Origin: an uncultured Bacteroidota bacterium
Lineage (GTDB): Bacteria; Bacteroidota; Ignavibacteria; UBA10030; UBA8401
Direction: 5' to 3'
Length of the DNA stretch: 64,000 bases
Assembly (NCBI GenBank): GCA_937920105.1
Contig: CALETH010000028.1
Coordinates: 19,273 to 83,272 of the forward strand
Shown: positions 3,068 through 62,903 of the stretch, piece by piece
How positions within the stretch are numbered: position 1 is the first letter of the stretch
Layout of the letters: each line of letters starts with the position of its first letter
The notes under the pieces: model-generated
The model's input: only the letters and a program-made list of their open reading frames with translations
The model's database searches: none
Told to the model about the DNA's origin: nothing
Made by a program: the position numbers and the translations under genes

Positions 3068-3097
3068 AGATTCCCACTTAAAGCATGTGGGAATGAC
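3068..3097. repeat. GC-rich hairpin of the GATTCCC(R)C...G(Y)GGGAATGAC family
   Basis: Sequence gattcccac-ttaaagcat-gtgggaatgac. It is a variant of a motif that recurs in many intergenic regions of this window. Confidence 0.5.
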
Positions 3098-3112
3098 CAA
3101 TCTTTAATTATC

Positions 3113-4552: not shown

Positions 4553-4556
4553 GAAA

Positions 4557-4587
4557 GATTTGTCAAGTTTTTAAAACTTGACAAATC
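4557..4587. repeat. 31-bp AT-centred palindrome GATTTGTCAAGTTTTTAAAACTTGACAAATC
   Basis: Near-perfect palindrome immediately 3' of gltX. The same sequence occurs at 53035-53065, and close variants at 11545, 22698 and 60675. Confidence 0.7.
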
Positions 4588-4602
4588 TAAAAACTGATTA
4601 CT

Positions 4603-11446: not shown

Positions 11447-11544
11447 AAGAATGTTGTTCAATTTATGAAATTTAAAAACGTGTTGCAAACAAAGAAAAAT
11501 TGTATTTAGAAGATGAAATCCATAAATTTTACCTGCTAAAAACA

Positions 11545-11575
11545 GACTAGTCAAGTTTTTAAAACTTGACTAGTC
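11545..11575. repeat. 31-bp AT-centred palindrome GACTAGTCAAGTTTTTAAAACTTGACTAGTC
   Basis: Lies in the divergent rlmN/uvrA intergenic region. Same family as 4557 and 53035. Confidence 0.7.
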
Positions 11576-11596
11576 TCCCTCTAACGAAAAATAAAT

Positions 11597-44862: not shown

Positions 44863-44887
44863 ATTTTTCATCCGTCCTTAGATAACT
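44863..44887 (-). terminator. Rho-independent terminator (minus strand) after the LRR gene
   Basis: On the minus strand: aaggacggat-gaaaa-atccgtcc followed by ttttttg. Confidence 0.65.
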
Positions 44888-45551
44888 CAAACCATGATAA
44901 TCTTTTCATCGTACCAATCATGGTTTACTTCACCAACACCATTTTCTTAATTTCACTAAATTTTCCCGCAGTCAGTCTGTAAAAATATATTCCACCGGAT
45001 AATTGACTTCCATCAAAATTCACTTCATACACTCCAACTTTCTTTTCTCCATTCACTAGTGTTGCGACTTCTTTCCCTAACATATCATACACTTTCAATG
45101 TTACATAACTACTTATTGGTAGTTGATAATTGATTAGTGTTGATGGGTTGAATGGGTTCGGATAGTTTTGAGATATACTATATTCTGTTGGTACAAAATT
45201 CTTTTCTGGATGAATTGATGTGGTGGGTAGAGTTCCAGTCCCATATGCTTTCAAGGTATCTAATCCTTTGGTGGTGTTACTGGTAAGGATGATTTGGGTG
45301 GAATCTTTTCCTAATCCATTTGGAGTGAACTTTATTGTTATATTACTTGTTTGAGTAAATGGAATGTTATATTGACTGCTTCCTACAACCATAAATTTTG
45401 AATTTGCAATATTGATTGTATTGATTTTCAAGGTATCTCCTCCCATACATTGTACGGCAAAGGACATATCTTTATTGCTGCCTATACCAACATTCCCAAA
45501 ATCTATTGTGGTAGATGAATAATTTGATGTGGGAGCAGAAAGAGTCGTAAA
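44884..45551. repeat. Approximately 668-bp segment apparently identical to 48911-49578
   Basis: Side-by-side reading shows no mismatch. It covers the 3' UTR hairpin AACCATGAT...ATCATGGTT plus the last ~200 codons of both LRR genes. Confidence 0.8.
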
Positions 45552-46556
45552 ATAGCTTGCTGAAGAATATGGACTATTTCCTTTTATATTTTGTGCACGC
45601 ACTCCCCAAGCATATGTTGTATTATACAATAACGGTCCTATTTGTTTGGATGTATCGGTAAGCGTGGTATCAAGAAGAATAGTAACATTATTTCTTACTA
45701 CATGAAGAAAATATTTATGGGCAGAGGAAACTTTTTTCCATGTTAGTGTGGGATACAATGATTGATTGGTCGCATTGTTTACTGGGCTTACTATAATCGG
45801 TGTTGTTGGTGATGGAAGAACTACATACATTGCTGACATATCTTTTATTATGGATATACCTGATGGTGGATTTACCAATACATAAATAGTAGTAAGATTA
45901 GCATTAGAAGAACAATTTAAATTTTGTAATGAGGTATTGGTACTAATATCTAATGTAGTCAGTTTAGTGGAAGAACAATATAAATTTTGTAATGCGGTAT
46001 TGGTACTCACATTTAAACTCGTCAGATTAGTGGAAGAACAATATAAATATAGTAATGCGGTGGCTCCACTCACATTTAATGTACTGAGATTAGCATTATT
46101 AGAACAATCTAAATATTCTAATGCGGTATTGGTACTCACGTTTAAACTCGTCAGATTAGTGGAAGAACAATCTAAAGTTTGTAATGCGGTGGCTCCACTC
46201 ACATTTAATGTGCTGAGATTAGCATTAGTAGAACAATCTAAATATTCTAATGCGGTATTGGTACTCACGTTTAATGTGCTGAGATTTGGATTATCAGAAC
46301 AATCTAAAGTTTGTAATGCGGTAAATTTTTCTATCCCTTGTAAATTGGTAATTTGAGAGCTGGATATCTCTATGATACGTACGGCACTGATATTTTGTAC
46401 TATTACCGTATCATTAGTACCTTGGGTTATAGCGTTAGCACTGTTAATAAGTGCAGTTCTAAAATTTTGGTCAGGCACCCATACTTTTGTTTGGGCAGTG
46501 GTTATTCCTACAACCAGTAAGAATAATGCAACGAGTTTGGTAAGTTGTGTTTGCAT
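44925..46556 (-). CDS. LRR + FN3-like surface protein with a T9SS C-terminal sorting domain (paralog A)
   Basis: Signal peptide. Units with period of about 22-23 aa (LDCS.N.NLSTLNVS.NTAL). C-terminus YPNPFNPSTLINYQLP...KVYDMLGKEVATLVN...YFYRLTAGKFSEIKKMVLVK. Confidence 0.8.
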   Translation of the reverse strand: MQTQLTKLVALFLLVVGITTAQTKVWVPDQNFRTALINSANAITQGTNDTVIVQNISAVRIIEISSSQITNLQGIEKFTALQTLDCSDNPNLSTLNVSTNTALEYLDCSTNANLSTLNVSGATALQTLDCSSTNLTSLNVSTNTALEYLDCSNNANLSTLNVSGATALLYLYCSSTNLTSLNVSTNTALQNLYCSSTKLTTLDISTNTSLQNLNCSSNANLTTIYVLVNPPSGISIIKDMSAMYVVLPSPTTPIIVSPVNNATNQSLYPTLTWKKVSSAHKYFLHVVRNNVTILLDTTLTDTSKQIGPLLYNTTYAWGVRAQNIKGNSPYSSASYFTTLSAPTSNYSSTTIDFGNVGIGSNKDMSFAVQCMGGDTLKINTINIANSKFMVVGSSQYNIPFTQTSNITIKFTPNGLGKDSTQIILTSNTTKGLDTLKAYGTGTLPTTSIHPEKNFVPTEYSISQNYPNPFNPSTLINYQLPISSYVTLKVYDMLGKEVATLVNGEKKVGVYEVNFDGSQLSGGIYFYRLTAGKFSEIKKMVLVK

Positions 46557-48908: not shown

Positions 48909-48951
48909 CCAACTCAAACCATGATAATCTTTTCATCGTACCAATCATGGT

Positions 48952-50715
48952 TTACTTCACCAACACCATTTTCTTAATTTCACTAAATTTTCCCGCAGTC
49001 AGTCTGTAAAAATATATTCCACCGGATAATTGACTTCCATCAAAATTCACTTCATACACTCCAACTTTCTTTTCTCCATTCACTAGTGTTGCGACTTCTT
49101 TCCCTAACATATCATACACTTTCAATGTTACATAACTACTTATTGGTAGTTGATAATTGATTAGTGTTGATGGGTTGAATGGGTTCGGATAGTTTTGAGA
49201 TATACTATATTCTGTTGGTACAAAATTCTTTTCTGGATGAATTGATGTGGTGGGTAGAGTTCCAGTCCCATATGCTTTCAAGGTATCTAATCCTTTGGTG
49301 GTGTTACTGGTAAGGATGATTTGGGTGGAATCTTTTCCTAATCCATTTGGAGTGAACTTTATTGTTATATTACTTGTTTGAGTAAATGGAATGTTATATT
49401 GACTGCTTCCTACAACCATAAATTTTGAATTTGCAATATTGATTGTATTGATTTTCAAGGTATCTCCTCCCATACATTGTACGGCAAAGGACATATCTTT
49501 ATTGCTGCCTATACCAACATTCCCAAAATCTATTGTGGTAGATGAATAATTTGATGTGGGAGCAGAAAGAGTCGTAAATTGATTTATCCTATAAGGACTG
49601 GTTCCCTTAACGTTTCTTGCTCGTACTTGCCATGTGTATATTGTATTATATAGTAACGGACCTATTTTTTTGGTGGTATCAACCAGTGTAGTATCTTTAA
49701 AAACTATAATATTGTTGTGTGATACTTCCAATTGATAGGTATGGGCAAAAGAAACTTTTCCCCATTTTAATGTTGGATATAATGATTGATTGGTCGCATT
49801 ATTTATTGGACTTAGTAAGATTGGCATTGCCGGAACTGGTGGAGTTACATAATTTGCTGACATATCTTTTACTTCTATTACACCTGGTGGTGGAAATGGA
49901 AGTATCCATACATATATAGTGGTAAGATTTGGATTTAACGAACAATCTACATCTGTTAATGCTGTATTTGCACTGATATCTAAAATACTAAGGTTATTAC
50001 CAAAACATTTTAAATATGTCAACGTTGTATTTCTATTTAAGTTCAATGTAGTTAGATTATTATTAACACAACTTAACGATATCAATGCTGTATTATTACT
50101 CACATCTAAGGTACTGATGTTATTATTAGAACAAGATAGTGTTTGTAATGCTGTATTTGTACTCACATCTAAGGTACTGATGTTATTATTAGAACAATAT
50201 AATGTTTGTAATGCTGTATTATTACTCACATCTAAGGTAGTAATATTCATAGAGGCACAATCTAAATGTGTTAATGCTGTATTTGCACTCACATCTAAAG
50301 TAGTGACCTTGTTGTTCGAACAATCTAAAACTTGTAATGCTGTATTATTACTTACATTTAGTATAGAAAGATTAGTGTTATAAAAACAGTTTAAATATGT
50401 TAATGCTAAATTGTTACTTACATCCAATGTGGTAAGTTGATTAAAAGCACAACTTAAATATTGTAATGCAGTAAATTTTTCTATTCCTTGTAAGTTAGTA
50501 ATTTGTTTATTATTAATAATTAAAGTATCAATCAAATTAATATTTGGCACTACTACAGTATCACTATTACCTTGAATAATATTATAAGTTGGAGAATGAT
50601 TAATAAGCGCTTTTCTAAAACTTGTATCAGGTACACATACTTTTGTTTGGGCAGTTATCTCTACAATAAATAATAATAATGCCACAAGGGTAAGTTTGGT
50701 TTTTATCATAATCAC
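48952..50715 (-). CDS. LRR + FN3-like surface protein with a T9SS C-terminal sorting domain (paralog B)
   Basis: Same architecture as 44925-46556. The last ~200 aa are identical. The N-terminal LRR region has diverged. Confidence 0.8.
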   Translation of the reverse strand: MIMIKTKLTLVALLLFIVEITAQTKVCVPDTSFRKALINHSPTYNIIQGNSDTVVVPNINLIDTLIINNKQITNLQGIEKFTALQYLSCAFNQLTTLDVSNNLALTYLNCFYNTNLSILNVSNNTALQVLDCSNNKVTTLDVSANTALTHLDCASMNITTLDVSNNTALQTLYCSNNNISTLDVSTNTALQTLSCSNNNISTLDVSNNTALISLSCVNNNLTTLNLNRNTTLTYLKCFGNNLSILDISANTALTDVDCSLNPNLTTIYVWILPFPPPGVIEVKDMSANYVTPPVPAMPILLSPINNATNQSLYPTLKWGKVSFAHTYQLEVSHNNIIVFKDTTLVDTTKKIGPLLYNTIYTWQVRARNVKGTSPYRINQFTTLSAPTSNYSSTTIDFGNVGIGSNKDMSFAVQCMGGDTLKINTINIANSKFMVVGSSQYNIPFTQTSNITIKFTPNGLGKDSTQIILTSNTTKGLDTLKAYGTGTLPTTSIHPEKNFVPTEYSISQNYPNPFNPSTLINYQLPISSYVTLKVYDMLGKEVATLVNGEKKVGVYEVNFDGSQLSGGIYFYRLTAGKFSEIKKMVLVK

Positions 50716-53024: not shown

Positions 53025-53034
53025 TATTTTTTTA

Positions 53035-53065
53035 GATTTGTCAAGTTTTTAAAACTTGACAAATC
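53035..53065. repeat. 31-bp AT-centred palindrome GATTTGTCAAGTTTTTAAAACTTGACAAATC
   Basis: Identical to the copy at 4557-4587. Lies inside the segment bracketed by the duplicated ogt 3' end. Confidence 0.7.
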
Positions 53066-53291
53066 TCTTCTCACAAAAAATATTTCCCATCCCATACTAA
53101 AACTATCAAAAAGTTTTCTTATTTTAGTTCTGCAAAAATAATTTCTTCCTTCCTAATTTTTTCAGAATGAATTTCTTCTTCGTTTAGAAGGTGCAATTAT
53201 TTTGCAATATGTTGAATTTCCGTAACCCTGCCAGAGTTTTAAACTCTGACAGGGTTTAGTTAAAAATAATTTCCTTCCTAATTTTTTTAGA

Positions 53292-55534: not shown

Positions 55535-57034
55535 ATGTATAATTTTTTCTACGTAATTTTATTAACAATAATAATTCATACAACAAATATTGCTCAAACA
55601 AAGGTATGGATTCCTGATGAACAATTTCGTAATGCGTTAATTAACCACTCTCTTAATTATAACATTAGTCAGAGCATCGGTGATACAGTTATTGTACCCA
55701 ATATTGCTGATATATATTTTTTAAAAATCAGTACTAATAATATTGCTAGTTTACAAGGAATAGAGAATTTTACTCATCTTGTATATTTGACATGTGGTGG
55801 TAATAAATTAATGAAATTAGATATAAGTAAAAATCAAGAATTAATATACTTAGATTGTGCAGTTAACCAACTCACAACATTAAATGTGAGTAAAAATACA
55901 AAATTAAAAACATTAATCTGCAATTACAATCAACTTACTGCTTTAAATGTAGAAAACAACATAAAATTAGAAAACTTAAATTGCTCTTCTAATAAAATTA
56001 TTTCTTTAAATTTAAAGAACAATATAAATCTCACAACATTAGATTGTTATTATAATCAACTTACTATCTTAGAAATAAACAAGAATAAAAAACTAGAAAA
56101 TTTAGACTGTTCTTCTAACCGCTTTACTTCATTAGATGTAAAAAATAATCATAATTTAAAAAAATTAAACTGTTACAATAATCAACTTACAAATTTGAAT
56201 GTGAGTCAAAATACAAATTTAACACATTTAAAATGTTATCTTAATCAATTTATAAAATTGGACATACATAAAAATACAGAATTACAATATTTAGATTGTT
56301 CCAAAAATCAACTTGTAAAATTAGATATAAGCCAGAACGGAAAATTAGTCTTTTTAGATTGTAATTCCAATAAACTTGATACATTAATAACAAATAAAAC
56401 AGAGATAAATTTAACATTAGAAACTTTATACTGTTTTTCTAATCAACTTACCACATTAGATATGACTAAAAATTTAGCGTTGAAATCTTTGAACTGTTCT
56501 TCTAATCAACTCACTGCATTAGATATAACTAAAAATTTTTTATTGAAGTTTTTGAACTGTTCTTCTAATCGACTCACCGCGTTAGATATAACTAAAAATT
56601 TTTCATTAGAAGTTTTAGATTGTTCTGTTAATCAACTTAATACATTAAATATAAACCAAAATACAAATTTAGTAGAATTAAAATGTTCTTCTAATAAAAT
56701 TAATACATTAAGTATAAATCAAAATATAAACCTGAATTATTTGTATTGTTCCTCAAACCAACTTACTAGTTTAGAATTAGGTAGTGTAAAATTAAAATTA
56801 TTAGATTGCTCTTTCAATCAACTTGGTACATTAAATGTAACCCAAAATACAAATTTAGAAATATTAAACTGTTCTTCTAATCAACTTACTAATTTAGATT
56901 TAAGTAAAAACCTAGAATTGATAAGCTTAAATTACAAGAAAACTAAAATTGAGAATATTGACCTTAGCAAAAATACAAAGTTACGAGAATTGTTTGATGA
57001 TGCAATTAAAGAAGAGGTTGAAGAAGCTCGATAA
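55535..57034 (+). CDS. Leucine-rich-repeat protein (third LRR paralog, no T9SS C-terminal domain)
   Basis: N-terminus (AQTKVWIPDEQFRNALINHS) is homologous to the N-termini of the two T9SS LRR proteins. About 20 LRR units (L.CS.N.LT.L). Ends without FN3 or sorting domains. Confidence 0.7.
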   Translation: MYNFFYVILLTIIIHTTNIAQTKVWIPDEQFRNALINHSLNYNISQSIGDTVIVPNIADIYFLKISTNNIASLQGIENFTHLVYLTCGGNKLMKLDISKNQELIYLDCAVNQLTTLNVSKNTKLKTLICNYNQLTALNVENNIKLENLNCSSNKIISLNLKNNINLTTLDCYYNQLTILEINKNKKLENLDCSSNRFTSLDVKNNHNLKKLNCYNNQLTNLNVSQNTNLTHLKCYLNQFIKLDIHKNTELQYLDCSKNQLVKLDISQNGKLVFLDCNSNKLDTLITNKTEINLTLETLYCFSNQLTTLDMTKNLALKSLNCSSNQLTALDITKNFLLKFLNCSSNRLTALDITKNFSLEVLDCSVNQLNTLNINQNTNLVELKCSSNKINTLSINQNINLNYLYCSSNQLTSLELGSVKLKLLDCSFNQLGTLNVTQNTNLEILNCSSNQLTNLDLSKNLELISLNYKKTKIENIDLSKNTKLRELFDDAIKEEVEEAR

Positions 57035-58243: not shown

Positions 58244-58309
58244 TCATGCCCGAATGTTTTCATCGGGCATCCACAAAATAGATTCCCGCTAAAAGCGTGC
58301 GGGAATGAC
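58244..58309. repeat. Two tandem GC-rich hairpins (GTCATGCCCGA...TCGGGCATC and GATTCCCGC...GCGGGAATGAC)
   Basis: Members of the GTCATTCCCGC family. Confidence 0.6.
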
Positions 58310-58335
58310 ATTACACTACAAATAAAATATCTTTT

Positions 58336-60110: not shown

Positions 60111-60117
60111 AATAAAA

Positions 60118-60139
60118 AACTTCGGTAAAAAAACCGAAG
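60118..60139 (+). terminator. Terminator-like hairpin
   Basis: Sequence aacttcgg-taaaaaaa-ccgaagtt. Confidence 0.5.
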
Positions 60140-60161
60140 TTCATAAATCACTAAAATATTT

Positions 60162-60247
60162 GTCATTCCCGCGAAAGCGGGAATCCAGTTTGTTTTTTAC
60201 AATAAAAATGGATGCCCAATAATCCCGACTTGTCGGGATGGGCATGA
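60162..60247. repeat. GC-rich hairpins GTCATTCCCGCGAAAGCGGGAATCC and nested GATGCCCAATAATCCCGACTTGTCGGGATGGGCATGAC
   Basis: Canonical member of the GTCATTCCCGC family, plus a second nested hairpin. Confidence 0.6.
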
Positions 60248-60255
60248 CGGAAAAA

Positions 60256-60642
60256 CTAATTATCCTTTGCACCTTCATTAATCCATTGTTTGAAAAGATT
60301 TACTTCATCTTCTGTTAATTTCTTTTTAGAAAAAAGTGGCATTTGTTTTCCTTTGGGTGGATTAGGTAATAATTTTGTGATGAGATAGCTTTCTTCTGAT
60401 TTTCCTACCACTACAGCTTTTTTATATTTTCCACCTTTCACAATATTTTCATATGTATCCATCATATATCCATTATCTCCATCGGAATCTGGTTGATGAC
60501 ATTTAATACATCGTTTATTGATAATCGGCATTAAATCTTTTGAAAGAGAAATTTCTTTTTTTTCTTCTTTTTTAGTTTCTTGCGAGTACAGTATTGCTAT
60601 ACTTATTGCACAAAGAAAAAAAATTGCGGTGAGTGTTTTCAT
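60256..60642 (-). CDS. Small c-type cytochrome-like protein (standalone PSCyt1-like domain), paralog 1
   Basis: Signal peptide. CIKCH heme-binding motif. C-terminal ...WINEGAKDN, shared with the two paralogs. Confidence 0.6.
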   Translation of the reverse strand: MKTLTAIFFLCAISIAILYSQETKKEEKKEISLSKDLMPIINKRCIKCHQPDSDGDNGYMMDTYENIVKGGKYKKAVVVGKSEESYLITKLLPNPPKGKQMPLFSKKKLTEDEVNLFKQWINEGAKDN

Positions 60643-60674
60643 AGTTTTTCCTTTTATATATGTTAGTGTTTAAA

Positions 60675-60705
60675 GATTACAAAAGTTTTAAAAACTTTTG
60701 TAATC
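60675..60705. repeat. 31-bp AT-centred palindrome GATTACAAAAGTTTTAAAAACTTTTGTAATC
   Basis: Same family as the 22698 element. Confidence 0.65.
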
Positions 60706-60717
60706 TACAAAAATATT

Positions 60718-60798
60718 AAATGTCAGACATCTTATCTCTAAATTTTTTCCTATAACAAATTTTATACATCTTCTTTCTAACAAGATGTCTAACATTTA
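60718..60798. promoter_or_regulatory. 16-bp inverted repeat AAATGTCAGACATCTT ...49 bp... AAGATGTCTAACATTT
   Basis: 15 of 16 positions are complementary. It lies between two cytochrome paralog genes, upstream of the 60256-60642 gene. Confidence 0.4.
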
Positions 60799-60801
60799 GA
60801 G

Positions 60802-61197
60802 TTAATTATCTTTTGCACCTTGGTCAATCCACAAAGAAATTTTAGCAATTTCATTTTCTGTTGCTGAATTTCCCGGTGGCATAATTGTTCCAAAACCGGC
60901 AGTACCTCGCATTTTGGTAATTAAGATACTTCCTGCTCCATTACCAGAAACAATTACTGGTGTGTGAATTCCAGTAGTTTTTAATTCATTCACAGTACCA
61001 AGATTTAATCCGCCAGAACCACCGTGACATCCAATACATCCATATTTATTAAAAATTGGTATGACATCACTTTGAAATGAAATTGTTGATACTGTTGTAT
61101 CCGGTGGAATAATAACTGTTGGTGTTGGTTCATTTCCCATATCCTTACAACTGTATAAAAAAATGCTGGTTACAATGAGAATGTAAAGAAGTTTCAT
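60802..61197 (-). CDS. Small c-type cytochrome-like lipoprotein (PSCyt1-like), paralog 2
   Basis: Lipobox LYSCKD. CIGCH. ...KMRGTAGFGTIMPP...WIDQGAKDN. Confidence 0.6.
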   Translation of the reverse strand: MKLLYILIVTSIFLYSCKDMGNEPTPTVIIPPDTTVSTISFQSDVIPIFNKYGCIGCHGGSGGLNLGTVNELKTTGIHTPVIVSGNGAGSILITKMRGTAGFGTIMPPGNSATENEIAKISLWIDQGAKDN

Positions 61198-61217
61198 AGA
61201 TTTTTTTTAAAATAAAA

Positions 61218-61613
61218 TTAATTATCTTTTGCACCTTGGTTAATCCATGCAGAAATCTTGGTTATTGAAATTTCGGAAATCATACCCTCTGGCGGCATAA
61301 TTGTTCCAAAACCTGCAGTACCACGCATTTTTTTTATTAAAATACTGCCCTCCGCATCCCCAACAATAACTACTGGTTTGTGGTCTCCTGTAGTTTTTAA
61401 TTTGTTTACATTACTAAGATTTAATCCACCATTATCGCCATGACACGTTATACATCTATAGTTATTAAAAATTGGAAGAATATCTTTTTGAAAAGAGACA
61501 GTTGTTGGATAAGGTATATTAGGTGGAAGACCTTCAGGTGGATTATCTCCTAAATCTATACAACCATATAGAAAAAAAAATTTTGCAATAAAAATATAAG
61601 AAAGTTTAGTCAT
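61218..61613 (-). CDS. Small c-type cytochrome-like lipoprotein (PSCyt1-like), paralog 3
   Basis: Lipobox LYGCID. CITCH. ...KMRGTAGFGTIMPP...WINQGAKDN. Confidence 0.6.
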   Translation of the reverse strand: MTKLSYIFIAKFFFLYGCIDLGDNPPEGLPPNIPYPTTVSFQKDILPIFNNYRCITCHGDNGGLNLSNVNKLKTTGDHKPVVIVGDAEGSILIKKMRGTAGFGTIMPPEGMISEISITKISAWINQGAKDN

Positions 61614-61655
61614 AAAAAATTTTTCCTTTAATAAATATGGAATAATAATCTGAAA

Positions 61656-62774
61656 TTATAAATAAAAATGAAACATACATTGTATTTCATCATTCTTTAT
61701 TTCATTTTTTTCTTCTTTATTTAAACGATACATTGGCTGAATTTCCACTCCATTCCATGGAAATAGTTCAACACCAAAAGTCATCCGTGTATAACTTCCC
61801 GTTTTAAGATTTTTATCTGGGTCATAAAATTCGTAACGAACATTTGCATCTATACCTTGGGTAATTGTGTAACTTAATTCGTTAAATGTAACGAAGCCAA
61901 CAATTTCTTTTCCTTCACTAAAAAGTGTAACATAATCAAGTTCCCCAGTGTATGTGAGTGATTGTAAAATATTGAAAGAACCAAACGCTCCATAGAATTG
62001 TGTTTTTCCGGATGTATTTGTGTTAGGATGGTTATAGAATGAACCGCCAATAATCAAATTTCCAAAATCTGTTTGGATAGTTGCATCTCCGCGAGCAACA
62101 AATGCTTTGGATTTTTCTCCTGCGACACCGGAAATTCCACCTCCGGGAGTTCCGTTAAAAACTCCAACATTGAATGTGAAAATACTTGGGAGAAAACCAA
62201 ATTCCAATCCTGTATCTTCAGAACGCTGTCCAAAGCGAAACCCTGTAGAAGGTGAACCATAACCGCCACCGCGAATAAAGGCAGTGTGGTCTTCAATGCG
62301 GGTTCCATACGCTGGCAAAAATTTTCCGAGTTTTACATAACCGTGTAATGGAAGAACTTTTGCTAATCCATATACTTCAAATCCGGAATACAATCCTTTA
62401 TCAAGATGAAGAGAAATTTTTTTGTTGAGTTTCATATCAATATAAATATCTCCTTGCATTTGAAAAAAACTACTTTTTTTATCTGCTATTGTATAAAAGA
62501 AAAGTGTACGAATATCTGCTCCGAGAGAAAATGTACTAAACAAACTTCCTACTTTTTCTGTAATTTCTTCTTCTACATTTTCTTCTTTTTCATTTAGGGA
62601 TATTGGTAATTCTTCTTTCCCGTACGTTGCACCAAAAGTATTTCGCATTCCTTTTCCTGTGGGATTTACGTGACATGATTGGCATTTCATTCCGGTACGT
62701 GCAGAAAACTTTGGCAACGCATAGAGTGATGATGAAATGAGTGTTGTTAAAAAAATGAGTATGAGTGTTTTCAT
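61656..62774 (-). CDS. Predicted outer-membrane beta-barrel protein with an N-terminal CxxCH heme-binding motif
   Basis: Signal peptide, then CQSCH at residues 31-35. Alternating amphipathic strands. C-terminal ...FHFYL ends in an aromatic residue. Confidence 0.5.
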   Translation of the reverse strand: MKTLILIFLTTLISSSLYALPKFSARTGMKCQSCHVNPTGKGMRNTFGATYGKEELPISLNEKEENVEEEITEKVGSLFSTFSLGADIRTLFFYTIADKKSSFFQMQGDIYIDMKLNKKISLHLDKGLYSGFEVYGLAKVLPLHGYVKLGKFLPAYGTRIEDHTAFIRGGGYGSPSTGFRFGQRSEDTGLEFGFLPSIFTFNVGVFNGTPGGGISGVAGEKSKAFVARGDATIQTDFGNLIIGGSFYNHPNTNTSGKTQFYGAFGSFNILQSLTYTGELDYVTLFSEGKEIVGFVTFNELSYTITQGIDANVRYEFYDPDKNLKTGSYTRMTFGVELFPWNGVEIQPMYRLNKEEKNEIKNDEIQCMFHFYL

Positions 62775-62821: not shown

Positions 62822-62893
62822 GTCATTCCTGCGAAAGCAGGAATCCACACATTTTATATTTCTGGATTCCCGCTAAAAACATGCGGGAATGAC
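62822..62893. repeat. Two tandem GC-rich hairpins GTCATTCCTGCGAAAGCAGGAATCC and GGATTCCCGCTAAAAACATGCGGGAATGAC
   Basis: Canonical members of the dispersed family. Confidence 0.65.
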
Positions 62894-62903
62894 ATTTGAA
62901 TTA

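Follow-up and report, generated by a model that had tools for sequence, protein, structure and literature searches.

A four-gene operon lies on the minus strand of a 64,000-nucleotide stretch of DNA (hereafter the window; GenBank assembly GCA_937920105.1, contig CALETH010000028.1, positions 19,273 to 83,272 of the forward strand) from an uncultured Bacteroidota bacterium assigned to the Ignavibacteria. Its first gene encodes a 372-amino-acid (aa) cytochrome-porin and is followed by genes for three small monoheme c-type cytochromes (Table 1), with intergenic gaps of 42, 20 and 159 nucleotides (nt). The original prediction for this DNA had drawn four co-directional genes here, and this outline is borne out. 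CxxCH heme motifs are confined to these four among the 145 six-frame open reading frames (ORFs) of at least 60 aa in the 64 kb, and each has exactly one (CQSCH, CITCH, CIGCH and CIKCH, all as first read). Because the operon genes are the sole CxxCH ORFs in the window, this clustering is not due to chance.

Table 1. Features of the cytochrome-porin operon, and cytochrome-like genes lacking CxxCH in related loci (coordinates of the window, or of the named locus)
Feature	Position	Strand	Basis or detail
372-aa Cyc2-like fused monoheme cytochrome-porin gene	61656..62774	-	only CQSCH, residues 31-35
CQSCH heme c attachment motif codons, residues 31-35	62670..62684	-	sequence, conservation, motif census
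Predicted 16-strand porin barrel, residues 82-371	61662..62531	-	structure prediction; contains M106 and H163
Small cytochrome 1, 131 aa, PSCyt1-type	61218..61613	-	putative lipobox FLYGC, CITCH, Met-Pro motif
Small cytochrome 2, 131 aa, tandem paralogue of cytochrome 1	60802..61197	-	putative lipobox FLYSC then KDMGNE, CIGCH, Met-Pro motif
Spacer of 159 nt before cytochrome 3, two strong hairpins	60643..60801	-	inverted repeats, RNA fold
Small cytochrome 3, 128 aa, PSCyt1-type	60256..60642	-	CIKCH, QMP, ordinary-looking signal peptide, no convincing lipobox
Palindromic element GGATTCCTGCTTTCGCAGGAATGAC upstream of the porin gene	62822..62846	-	sole close twin 60162-60186
Second palindrome copy (GGATTCCCGCTTTCGCGGGAATGAC), same orientation, downstream of last gene	60162..60186	-	
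Intrinsic-terminator-like hairpin and T-run after last gene	60117..60142	-	
Cytochrome-like gene without CxxCH	L058 1358-2071		
Cytochrome-like gene without CxxCH	L063 4270-5154		
Cytochrome-like gene without CxxCH	L065 7117-7830		
Cytochrome-like gene without CxxCH	L074 7114-7803		
Cytochrome-like gene without CxxCH	L079 7111-7830		
Cytochrome-like gene without CxxCH	L082 1330-2052		

In the 372-aa protein, the signal peptide (residues 1-19) leads into a putative heme-binding N-terminal peptide; an acidic linker helix and a predicted beta-barrel follow, and the C terminus is FHFYL. By inspection, the signal peptide (MKTLILIFLTTLISSSLYA|LPKF) would be cleaved at ...SLYA|LPKF, and each of the 39 homologues in the alignment likewise starts with a hydrophobic stretch that ends in small residues. 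The heme motif is preceded by ALPKFSARTGMK and followed by VNPTGKGMR. Structure prediction returned a barrel rather than a soluble protein, with 16 strands and a fold like that of OprP, and the CxxCH motif is invariant in the family; both agree with the earlier description of a beta-barrel in the outer membrane that carries one heme site near its N terminus. Searches of Pfam, NCBIfam and the sequences of the Protein Data Bank (PDB) gave no match to this protein, and a tblastn search of plasmids gave a chance match only.

Homologues of the porin are numerous and unannotated. A word-indexed database yielded 348 at E <= 0.001, every one labelled 'hypothetical', and those with an organism name come almost entirely from Bacteroidota or Ignavibacteriales metagenome-assembled genomes. 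An exhaustive profile search found 1,949 representative clusters (50% identity) at E <= 0.001, 250 of them at E <= 1e-30; the source annotation of their representatives is 'hypothetical protein' only, and their N termini typically read, roughly, A[LV]PR[FY][AS]xR[TY]GxxCxxCHVNP[TS]GGG[ML]R. In the alignment of 39 homologues, C31, C34 and H35 are invariant within the N-terminal pattern ALPKFAxRxGAKCQSCHVNPTGKGMR, and all 118 close homologues that bear the N-terminal motif have a single heme site. Conservation was also scored across 128 superfamily representatives that share less than 50% identity pairwise: C31, C34, H35, G40, G85 and G157 are conserved in 100% of them and R44 in 99%.

Two further residues stand out in this comparison. 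M106 (93% conserved in the 128 representatives) lies in FFQMQGD in barrel strand 2, and H163 (91%) lies in DDH in a low-confidence loop; on this conservation, they are the best candidates for the distal (sixth) heme ligand. The position of M106 within a barrel strand of the model hints that the heme may pack against the barrel interior. M43, in GKGMR, was also considered as a conserved distal ligand and was rejected, as Met occupies this position in only 63 of the 128 representatives.

The three small proteins match the Pfam domain PSCyt1 (PF07635) over its full length, with scores of 26.9, 20.6 and 33.6 bits for cytochromes 1, 2 and 3 (cutoff 22). Cytochrome 2 alone falls slightly under the cutoff, yet it is 59% identical to cytochrome 1, and a DNA repeat (60875-61088 and 61291-61504, 77% identical) has one copy in each of these two genes; cytochrome 3 is 35-37% identical to each of the other two. 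The assignment of three PSCyt1-type monoheme cytochromes after the porin therefore stands. Other features proposed for the triplet apply to only part of it. The C-terminal WI.[QE]GAKDN is common to all three, whereas GTAGFGTIMPP, which had been read as part of a tail shared by all, occurs in cytochromes 1 and 2 only, and cytochrome 3 has PKGKQMPLF. A lipoprotein signal had likewise been assigned to each: cytochromes 1 (L-Y-G-C, in FLYGC) and 2 (L-Y-S-C, in FLYSC) fit a relaxed version of the lipobox pattern [LVI][ASTVI][GAS]C, but the F-F-L-C of cytochrome 3 lies in the middle of a helix (FFLCAIS...YSQE), off the lipobox pattern, and its signal peptide looks like an ordinary one. A lipobox is likewise missing from relatives of this type, and cytochrome 3 is probably a soluble periplasmic PSCyt1-type cytochrome. 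A word-index homologue search with cytochrome 1 returned only itself and cytochrome 2 of the window, a search of PDB sequences with cytochrome 3 gave chance-level matches only, and AlphaFold2 run for cytochrome 3 on a four-sequence alignment gave no usable fold (predicted local distance difference test (pLDDT) 46.8).

Relatives of the operon were sought in one genome per species, and 202 genomes were positive. The best 80 loci come almost entirely from metagenome genomes labelled Ignavibacteria, Bacteroidota or 'Chlorobi', with two other labels. The porin gene is followed directly and on the same strand by one to three small-cytochrome homologues in 74 of 84 loci, and 8 of the 10 exceptions stop at a contig edge. 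PSCyt1 is usually the N-terminal module of large DUF1549/DUF1553 proteins, and free-standing copies had been taken as unusual for that reason; next to this porin they are the rule, and three copies occur in 12 loci. The operon is thus a case of a conserved pairing of a cytochrome-porin with PSCyt1-type cytochromes, and its triplet is not unique to the window. A Met-Pro, a likely axial ligand, lies downstream of the heme motif in 113 of the 120 small-cytochrome relatives that have such a motif, and nearly all of the 120 end in WI[DN]QGAK[DNK]N. In many relatives (about 30 loci), the position of first partner is taken by a lipoprotein of about 217 aa that has an immunoglobulin (Ig)-like TIG domain (for example, L001 9201-9854) and a conserved motif, C-[DEKT]-D-[QM]-G-[DTS], after its lipobox.

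No further neighbour is conserved in most of the 84 loci. In 30-35 of them, the porin gene is directly preceded, on its own strand, by a pair of genes for an AAA+ protein (MoxR/Mg-chelatase-like) and a VWA-domain protein (L001 5173-7891). The window does not have this pair, which could act as chaperones in assembly or reflect mere lineage synteny. A subgroup of relatives has, directly after the porin gene, a gene for a protein of 229-294 aa that is similar to the small cytochromes (E values 4e-6 to 9e-15) but lacks CxxCH (Table 1), and these proteins may be heme-less paralogues.

The architecture of the 372-aa protein is that of Cyc2, a fused monoheme cytochrome-porin that acts as the outer-membrane Fe(II) oxidase of Acidithiobacillus, Leptospirillum (Cyt572), Zetaproteobacteria, Gallionellaceae and Chlorobium (PMC8406198). 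The kind of system is therefore already known, although the original prediction had not recognised a described one, and Cyc2-like genes have been reported in metagenome genomes of Ignavibacteriaceae and Bacteroidetes (PMC6344600, PMC8478452, PMC13594681); a text search of Keffer 2021 and McAllister 2020 found neither Ignavibacteria nor Bacteroidota mentioned. Keffer et al. describe Cyc2 by a signal peptide, a single CXXCH with AXPXFAR[Q/K][T/Y] upstream and PXL four residues downstream, 16 predicted strands resembling OprO and OprP (4RJW, 2O4V) and a length of at least 365 aa, and sequences without PXFAR[Q/K][T/Y] were removed from their data set and tree (PMC8406198). The length cut-off of FeGenie for Cyc2 is also 365 aa, and most confirmed members have at least 400 aa. 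By these measures the window protein has an N-terminal signal peptide, exactly one CXXCH near the N terminus, a predicted barrel of the right strand number and OprP/OprO-like structure, and a length of 372 aa, at the short end of the range; median lengths are 381 aa in its close homologues, 378 aa in distant representatives and 459 aa in a canonical comparison set.

For a direct comparison, Cyc2-type proteins were fetched from plasmids and chromids with a composed 37-aa N-terminal peptide, and their conformity to the published motifs was then checked. Examples from Caballeronia (ALPAFARQTGLACVACHVSFPEL), Methylocystis and Ideonella were supplemented by a homologue search, and 19 of the sequences were aligned (set A2). 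An hhalign comparison of the window family (set A1) with A2 gave a probability of 95.3% and an E value of 2.4e-8 over the N-terminal 43 columns only, and a hidden Markov model (HMM) built from the 19 motif-conforming proteins scores the window protein at 14.4 bits, entirely in the N terminus. Both groups share one register relative to the heme cysteine, with A where the signal peptide is cleaved, P at C-10, F at C-8, T/Y at C-4 and G at C-3. At the level of sequence, these alignments show that the heme region of the window family is homologous to that of motif-conforming Cyc2-type proteins.

Around the heme motif itself, the two groups differ consistently. Upstream, the window protein has ALPKFSARTGMKC, that is, PxF[AS]xR and not PxFAR[Q/K][T/Y]; A, P, F, [A/S], T/Y and G of this variant still fall in register, and the Arg is displaced by one position. 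Downstream it reads CH-VN-PTG, with P at H+3 followed by x-G, and PxG at H+3 is found in 118/118 close homologues, 132/136 distant representatives and 0/117 members of the canonical set. As both published Cyc2 motifs fail, we therefore place the protein, on sequence grounds, in an unannotated sister family of Cyc2 and not in Cyc2 proper; the family comprises about 1,950 clusters and has no Pfam or NCBIfam model. It falls outside Cyc2 as published, and is excluded from the published Cyc2 phylogeny by construction, because the underlying data set was filtered on a motif that the family lacks. As far as the searchable literature shows, neither this motif-distinct branch nor its size has been described.

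The genomic context of the two families is also similar. Cyc2 genes typically precede genes for periplasmic c-type cytochromes (PMC8406198, PMC7029218), as do the canonical Cyc2-type genes of Caballeronia, Methylocystis and Ideonella that we retrieved. A distant member of the superfamily (P0180, locus L089 1542-4029; GCA_964344575.1, CAYFOA010000029.1) has redox genes on both sides: the upstream gene, which overlaps the porin gene, encodes a cupredoxin-like lipoprotein with a C..H...M copper site, and the downstream gene encodes a diheme c4-type cytochrome. We take this arrangement to resemble the rus operon of Acidithiobacillus. The cupredoxin and c4 context fits the model for Cyc2, in which electrons pass to interchangeable periplasmic cytochromes and from there to a terminal oxidase (PMC7029218). 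A fixed partnership of such a porin with PSCyt1-type cytochromes has, as far as the searchable literature shows (judged from titles and abstracts), not been described.

Taken together, the operon is best read as an electron relay that crosses the outer membrane and periplasm, and it is probable that the four genes encode a Cyc2-type outer-membrane electron-transfer module built around a sister family of canonical Cyc2, with Fe(II) oxidation favoured by analogy with Cyc2. In the mechanism that we envisage, the 372-aa protein would be exported and cleaved after SLYA, and one heme c would be attached at C31, C34 and H35 on the short N-terminal peptide. The remaining chain would form a narrow 16-strand porin, with the heme peptide presumably inside the barrel lumen or beneath it. 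A soluble redox species of small size, for which Fe2+ is the most plausible candidate, would enter the pore and exchange an electron with the heme, and the electron would then pass to the PSCyt1-type cytochromes, of which 1 and 2 are probably lipid-anchored and 3 is probably soluble in the periplasm. These cytochromes would connect the porin to the respiratory chain.

Several observations weigh against this interpretation. The strict pattern P.FAR[QK][TY] is found in 0/118 close homologues and 0/136 distant representatives, compared with 84/117 of the canonical set, and PxL at H+4 in 0/118, 0/136 and 117/117, respectively. The similarity to Cyc2-type proteins is limited to about 35-43 N-terminal residues, part of which is signal peptide, and reciprocal HMM searches score only 10-20 bits over the same stretch. 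This restriction to the N terminus is as expected for Cyc2, because its porin part is poorly conserved and Cyc2 clusters are only about 17-22% identical (Keffer et al.). Moreover, comparison set A2 consists of Burkholderiales and Xanthomonadales-type proteins, without a biochemically validated Cyc2. Residues 16-76 of the structure model have pLDDT values below 50, so the model does not fix the position of the heme. No terminal oxidase or other respiratory gene was found within the 64-kb window. Finally, cultured Ignavibacteria are heterotrophs, and Ignavibacteria have been described as Fe(III) reducers (PMC7914226, PMC8478452).

This last point makes outward or bidirectional electron flow the main rival to Fe(II) oxidation. 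The same hardware might deliver respiratory electrons to acceptors in solution outside the cell, for example chelated Fe(III), humic quinones or Mn(III/IV) species, in keeping with the description of Ignavibacteria as Fe(III) reducers and with metagenome genomes flagged for both iron oxidation and iron reduction (PMC7914226, PMC8478452, PMC13594681, PMC6344600). Keffer et al. also allow that Cyc2 may have additional functions, and sequence fixes no direction of electron flow. Against this, all biochemically tested fused cytochrome-porins (A. ferrooxidans Cyc2, Cyt572 and PV-1 Cyc2) oxidise Fe(II) (PMC8406198), and a single heme in a narrow pore is ill-suited to insoluble oxides; we regard outward or bidirectional flow as unlikely.

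A role outside energy metabolism seems improbable. The proteins could detoxify or sense Fe2+ in the periplasm or outside the cell, or another metal or redox signal, or could take up metal or heme through the porin with the CxxCH binding the cargo, and it is true that the surrounding genes of the window are housekeeping or envelope genes, that the neighbourhoods of relatives vary, some including signalling proteins, and that many hosts of Cyc2 homologues are not known iron oxidisers (Keffer et al.). However, a CxxCH whose His never varies is the hallmark of sites where heme c is bound covalently, and the co-encoding of one to three dedicated c-type cytochromes across 74 loci, together with the cupredoxin and diheme c4 cytochrome that flank the distant member, argues for an electron-transfer chain and not for transport.

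The original prediction had likened the operon to a minimal porin-cytochrome conduit of the MtrAB or PioAB kind. The conduit part of this proposal survives as the electron relay favoured here; the analogy does not fit, because the predicted 16-strand barrel carries its own heme site. A small cytochrome threaded into the barrel as a separate subunit would account for the adjoining barrel and cytochrome genes, as in mtrAB and pioAB, but we consider it very improbable: a pore of this type is about 3.5 Å at its narrowest (Keffer et al.), which excludes a folded cytochrome of about 100 residues, the heme site of the barrel protein is invariant, and each partner cytochrome has a single heme where ten would be expected. 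The reading as an ordinary porin in which a CxxCH arose by chance, beside unrelated cytochrome genes, for which the lack of any match to a curated Pfam or NCBIfam model might speak, is effectively refuted by the invariance of C31, C34 and H35 in the family and the 128 representatives, the cytochrome pairing in 74/84 loci and the restriction of CxxCH to the four operon genes.

An extension of the electron-relay reading concerns the lipoprotein partners. In relatives these carry a conserved acidic motif right after the lipidated Cys (C-[DE]-D-Q-G-D or C-[KT]-D-M-G), with D at +3 in 30/32 and D or E at +2 in 17/32. Because this motif resembles, although not exactly, the lipoprotein export signal of Bacteroidetes, CS(D/E)2 or K-(D/E)2 (PMC6222051), the partners are possibly exposed at the surface; the versions in the window, C-I-D-L-G-D and C-K-D-M-G-N-E, fit weakly. 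If displayed there, they might form a three-tier monoheme conduit that consists of a surface lipoprotein cytochrome, the porin heme and a soluble periplasmic cytochrome. We offer this conduit, jointly with the name 'NPxGGG-type' cytochrome-porins for the sister family, with the window protein as its founding example, as a speculative proposal that is rather unlikely to hold.

Hairpins and repeat elements surround and interrupt the operon. The inverted repeat noted earlier before the last gene is present, as 17-nt arms at 60717-60733 and 60782-60798 in the 159-nt spacer, and a second hairpin with 21-nt arms lies at 60669-60711; the RNA fold of the spacer has -41.6 kcal/mol (z -7.06), and Rfam has no family in the spacer or its flanks. 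As the gap before the third cytochrome is about 15 nt in relatives, the spacer is a local insertion that may partly uncouple cytochrome 3. It may act as an internal terminator or attenuator ahead of that gene. The hairpin at 60717-60798 has no other copy in the window. The one at 60669-60711 is a copy of a dispersed palindrome family (D9), a 33-nt perfect palindrome (AGATTTGTCAAGTTTTTAAAACTTGACAAATCT) at 4556-4588, 11544-11576, 53034-53066 and 60674-60706; all copies are intergenic, at gene ends, and may be AT-rich bidirectional terminators or repetitive extragenic palindrome (REP)-like elements.

The operon probably ends at the terminator-like hairpin and T-run that follow the last gene. A palindrome pair, GGATTCC.GCTTTCGC.GGAATGAC, brackets the four genes, with two matches in the window and none expected by chance, and its downstream copy is also a terminator-like hairpin on the plus strand. 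A second hairpin family, GATTCCCGC...GCGGGAATGAC, occurs at 3069-3100, 58281-58312 and 62865-62896 and includes the bracketing pair.

The flanking dispersed repeats inferred earlier are therefore real, in that the flanking hairpins belong to window-wide families, but they carry no sign of acquisition. The G+C content of the operon (0.28-0.38) matches the remainder of the window, related palindrome copies lie elsewhere in it, and relatives of the module occur widely across the lineage (202 species genomes); we thus find no evidence of recent acquisition. The suggestion of regulated, possibly acquired content is not supported, and the idea of an acquired island is rejected.

The neighbouring genes are as previously described in kind. 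A peptidase gene on one flank encodes an M61 peptidase with a PDZ domain, and the glycosyltransferase genes on the other encode a Bac_transf sugar transferase and a GT9 heptosyltransferase. Further neighbours in the window include an Rce1-like protease and leucine-rich-repeat (LRR) proteins. Repeats in the LRR genes lie at 44884-45183 versus 48911-49210, at 45840-46279 and 49933-50369, and at 55776-56950; several of these genes contain 63-nt (21-aa) tandem units. The LRR gene at 48952-50715 encodes a type IX secretion system (T9SS) sorting domain, a sign of an organism of the Bacteroidota/Ignavibacteria type, and the LRR gene at 55535-57034 has a very low G+C content (0.21-0.24). At the C-terminal end, two LRR genes are 100% identical over 300 nt, and a recent gene conversion or duplication is suggested by this. 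Elsewhere, a T/C-rich 40-nt motif (TTCTnnnTTCTnAATTCTnACTTCT..., family D5) occurs in nine intergenic copies between 33952 and 46763, beside a long run of minus-strand genes, and could be a common promoter or leader element.

Cyc2 is the main genetic marker by which microbial iron oxidation is inferred from genomes and metagenomes. The family described here is common in Ignavibacteria and Bacteroidota of groundwater, soil and the subsurface, lineages in which surveys flag 'iron oxidation genes' without experimental support. If its members are active oxidoreductases of iron or other metals, the part that a widespread heterotrophic lineage plays in iron cycling would have to be revised, marker-gene tools would need a fourth model beside the three Cyc2 cluster HMMs of FeGenie, and the pairing with the porin would give the poorly understood PSCyt1 domain a concrete physiological role. 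Were the lipoprotein partners in fact displayed at the surface, the substrate range might differ from that of canonical Cyc2.

Set against known systems, the operon combines familiar parts in an unfamiliar way. The barrel recalls the phosphate-selective porins OprP and OprO, but sequence identity is 14%, and OprP has neither a heme motif nor associated cytochromes. With MtrCAB, PioAB and MtoAB the operon would share outer-membrane electron transfer by a co-encoded beta-barrel and c-type cytochromes. In those systems, however, the barrel is much larger (26 strands in MtrB) and encloses a decaheme cytochrome that is a separate protein; here no large barrel sheathing a separate multiheme cytochrome is found, and a predicted 16-strand barrel with its own single heme site has monoheme partners. 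The small proteins resemble PSCyt1 in the full-length domain match and in the combination of CxxCH and a downstream Met-Pro, and differ in being free-standing, at 120-130 aa, or about 217 aa with the Ig-like TIG domain in relatives, in their conserved WI[DN]QGAK[DNK]N C terminus and in their dedication to a cytochrome-porin operon.

The closest likeness is to Cyc2, with A. ferrooxidans Cyc2, Leptospirillum Cyt572 and the Mariprofundus Cyc2 of strain PV-1 as the reference members. Both families have a signal peptide and one CxxCH near the mature N terminus, an A-x-P-x-F-[A/S] segment in identical register to the heme cysteine, a 16-strand OprP-like barrel (here predicted), a periplasmic c-type cytochrome gene directly downstream and a cytochrome region far more conserved than the porin region. 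The window family differs in its PxF[AS]xR[T/Y] and NPxGxG motifs (P at H+3), in its length of about 380 aa compared with about 460 aa in the comparison set, and in a barrel without detectable HMM similarity. It is partnered by monoheme cytochromes of the PSCyt1 type, some of which are lipoproteins, whereas the Cyc2 partner is the diheme c4-type Cyc1, and its hosts are Ignavibacteria and Bacteroidota.

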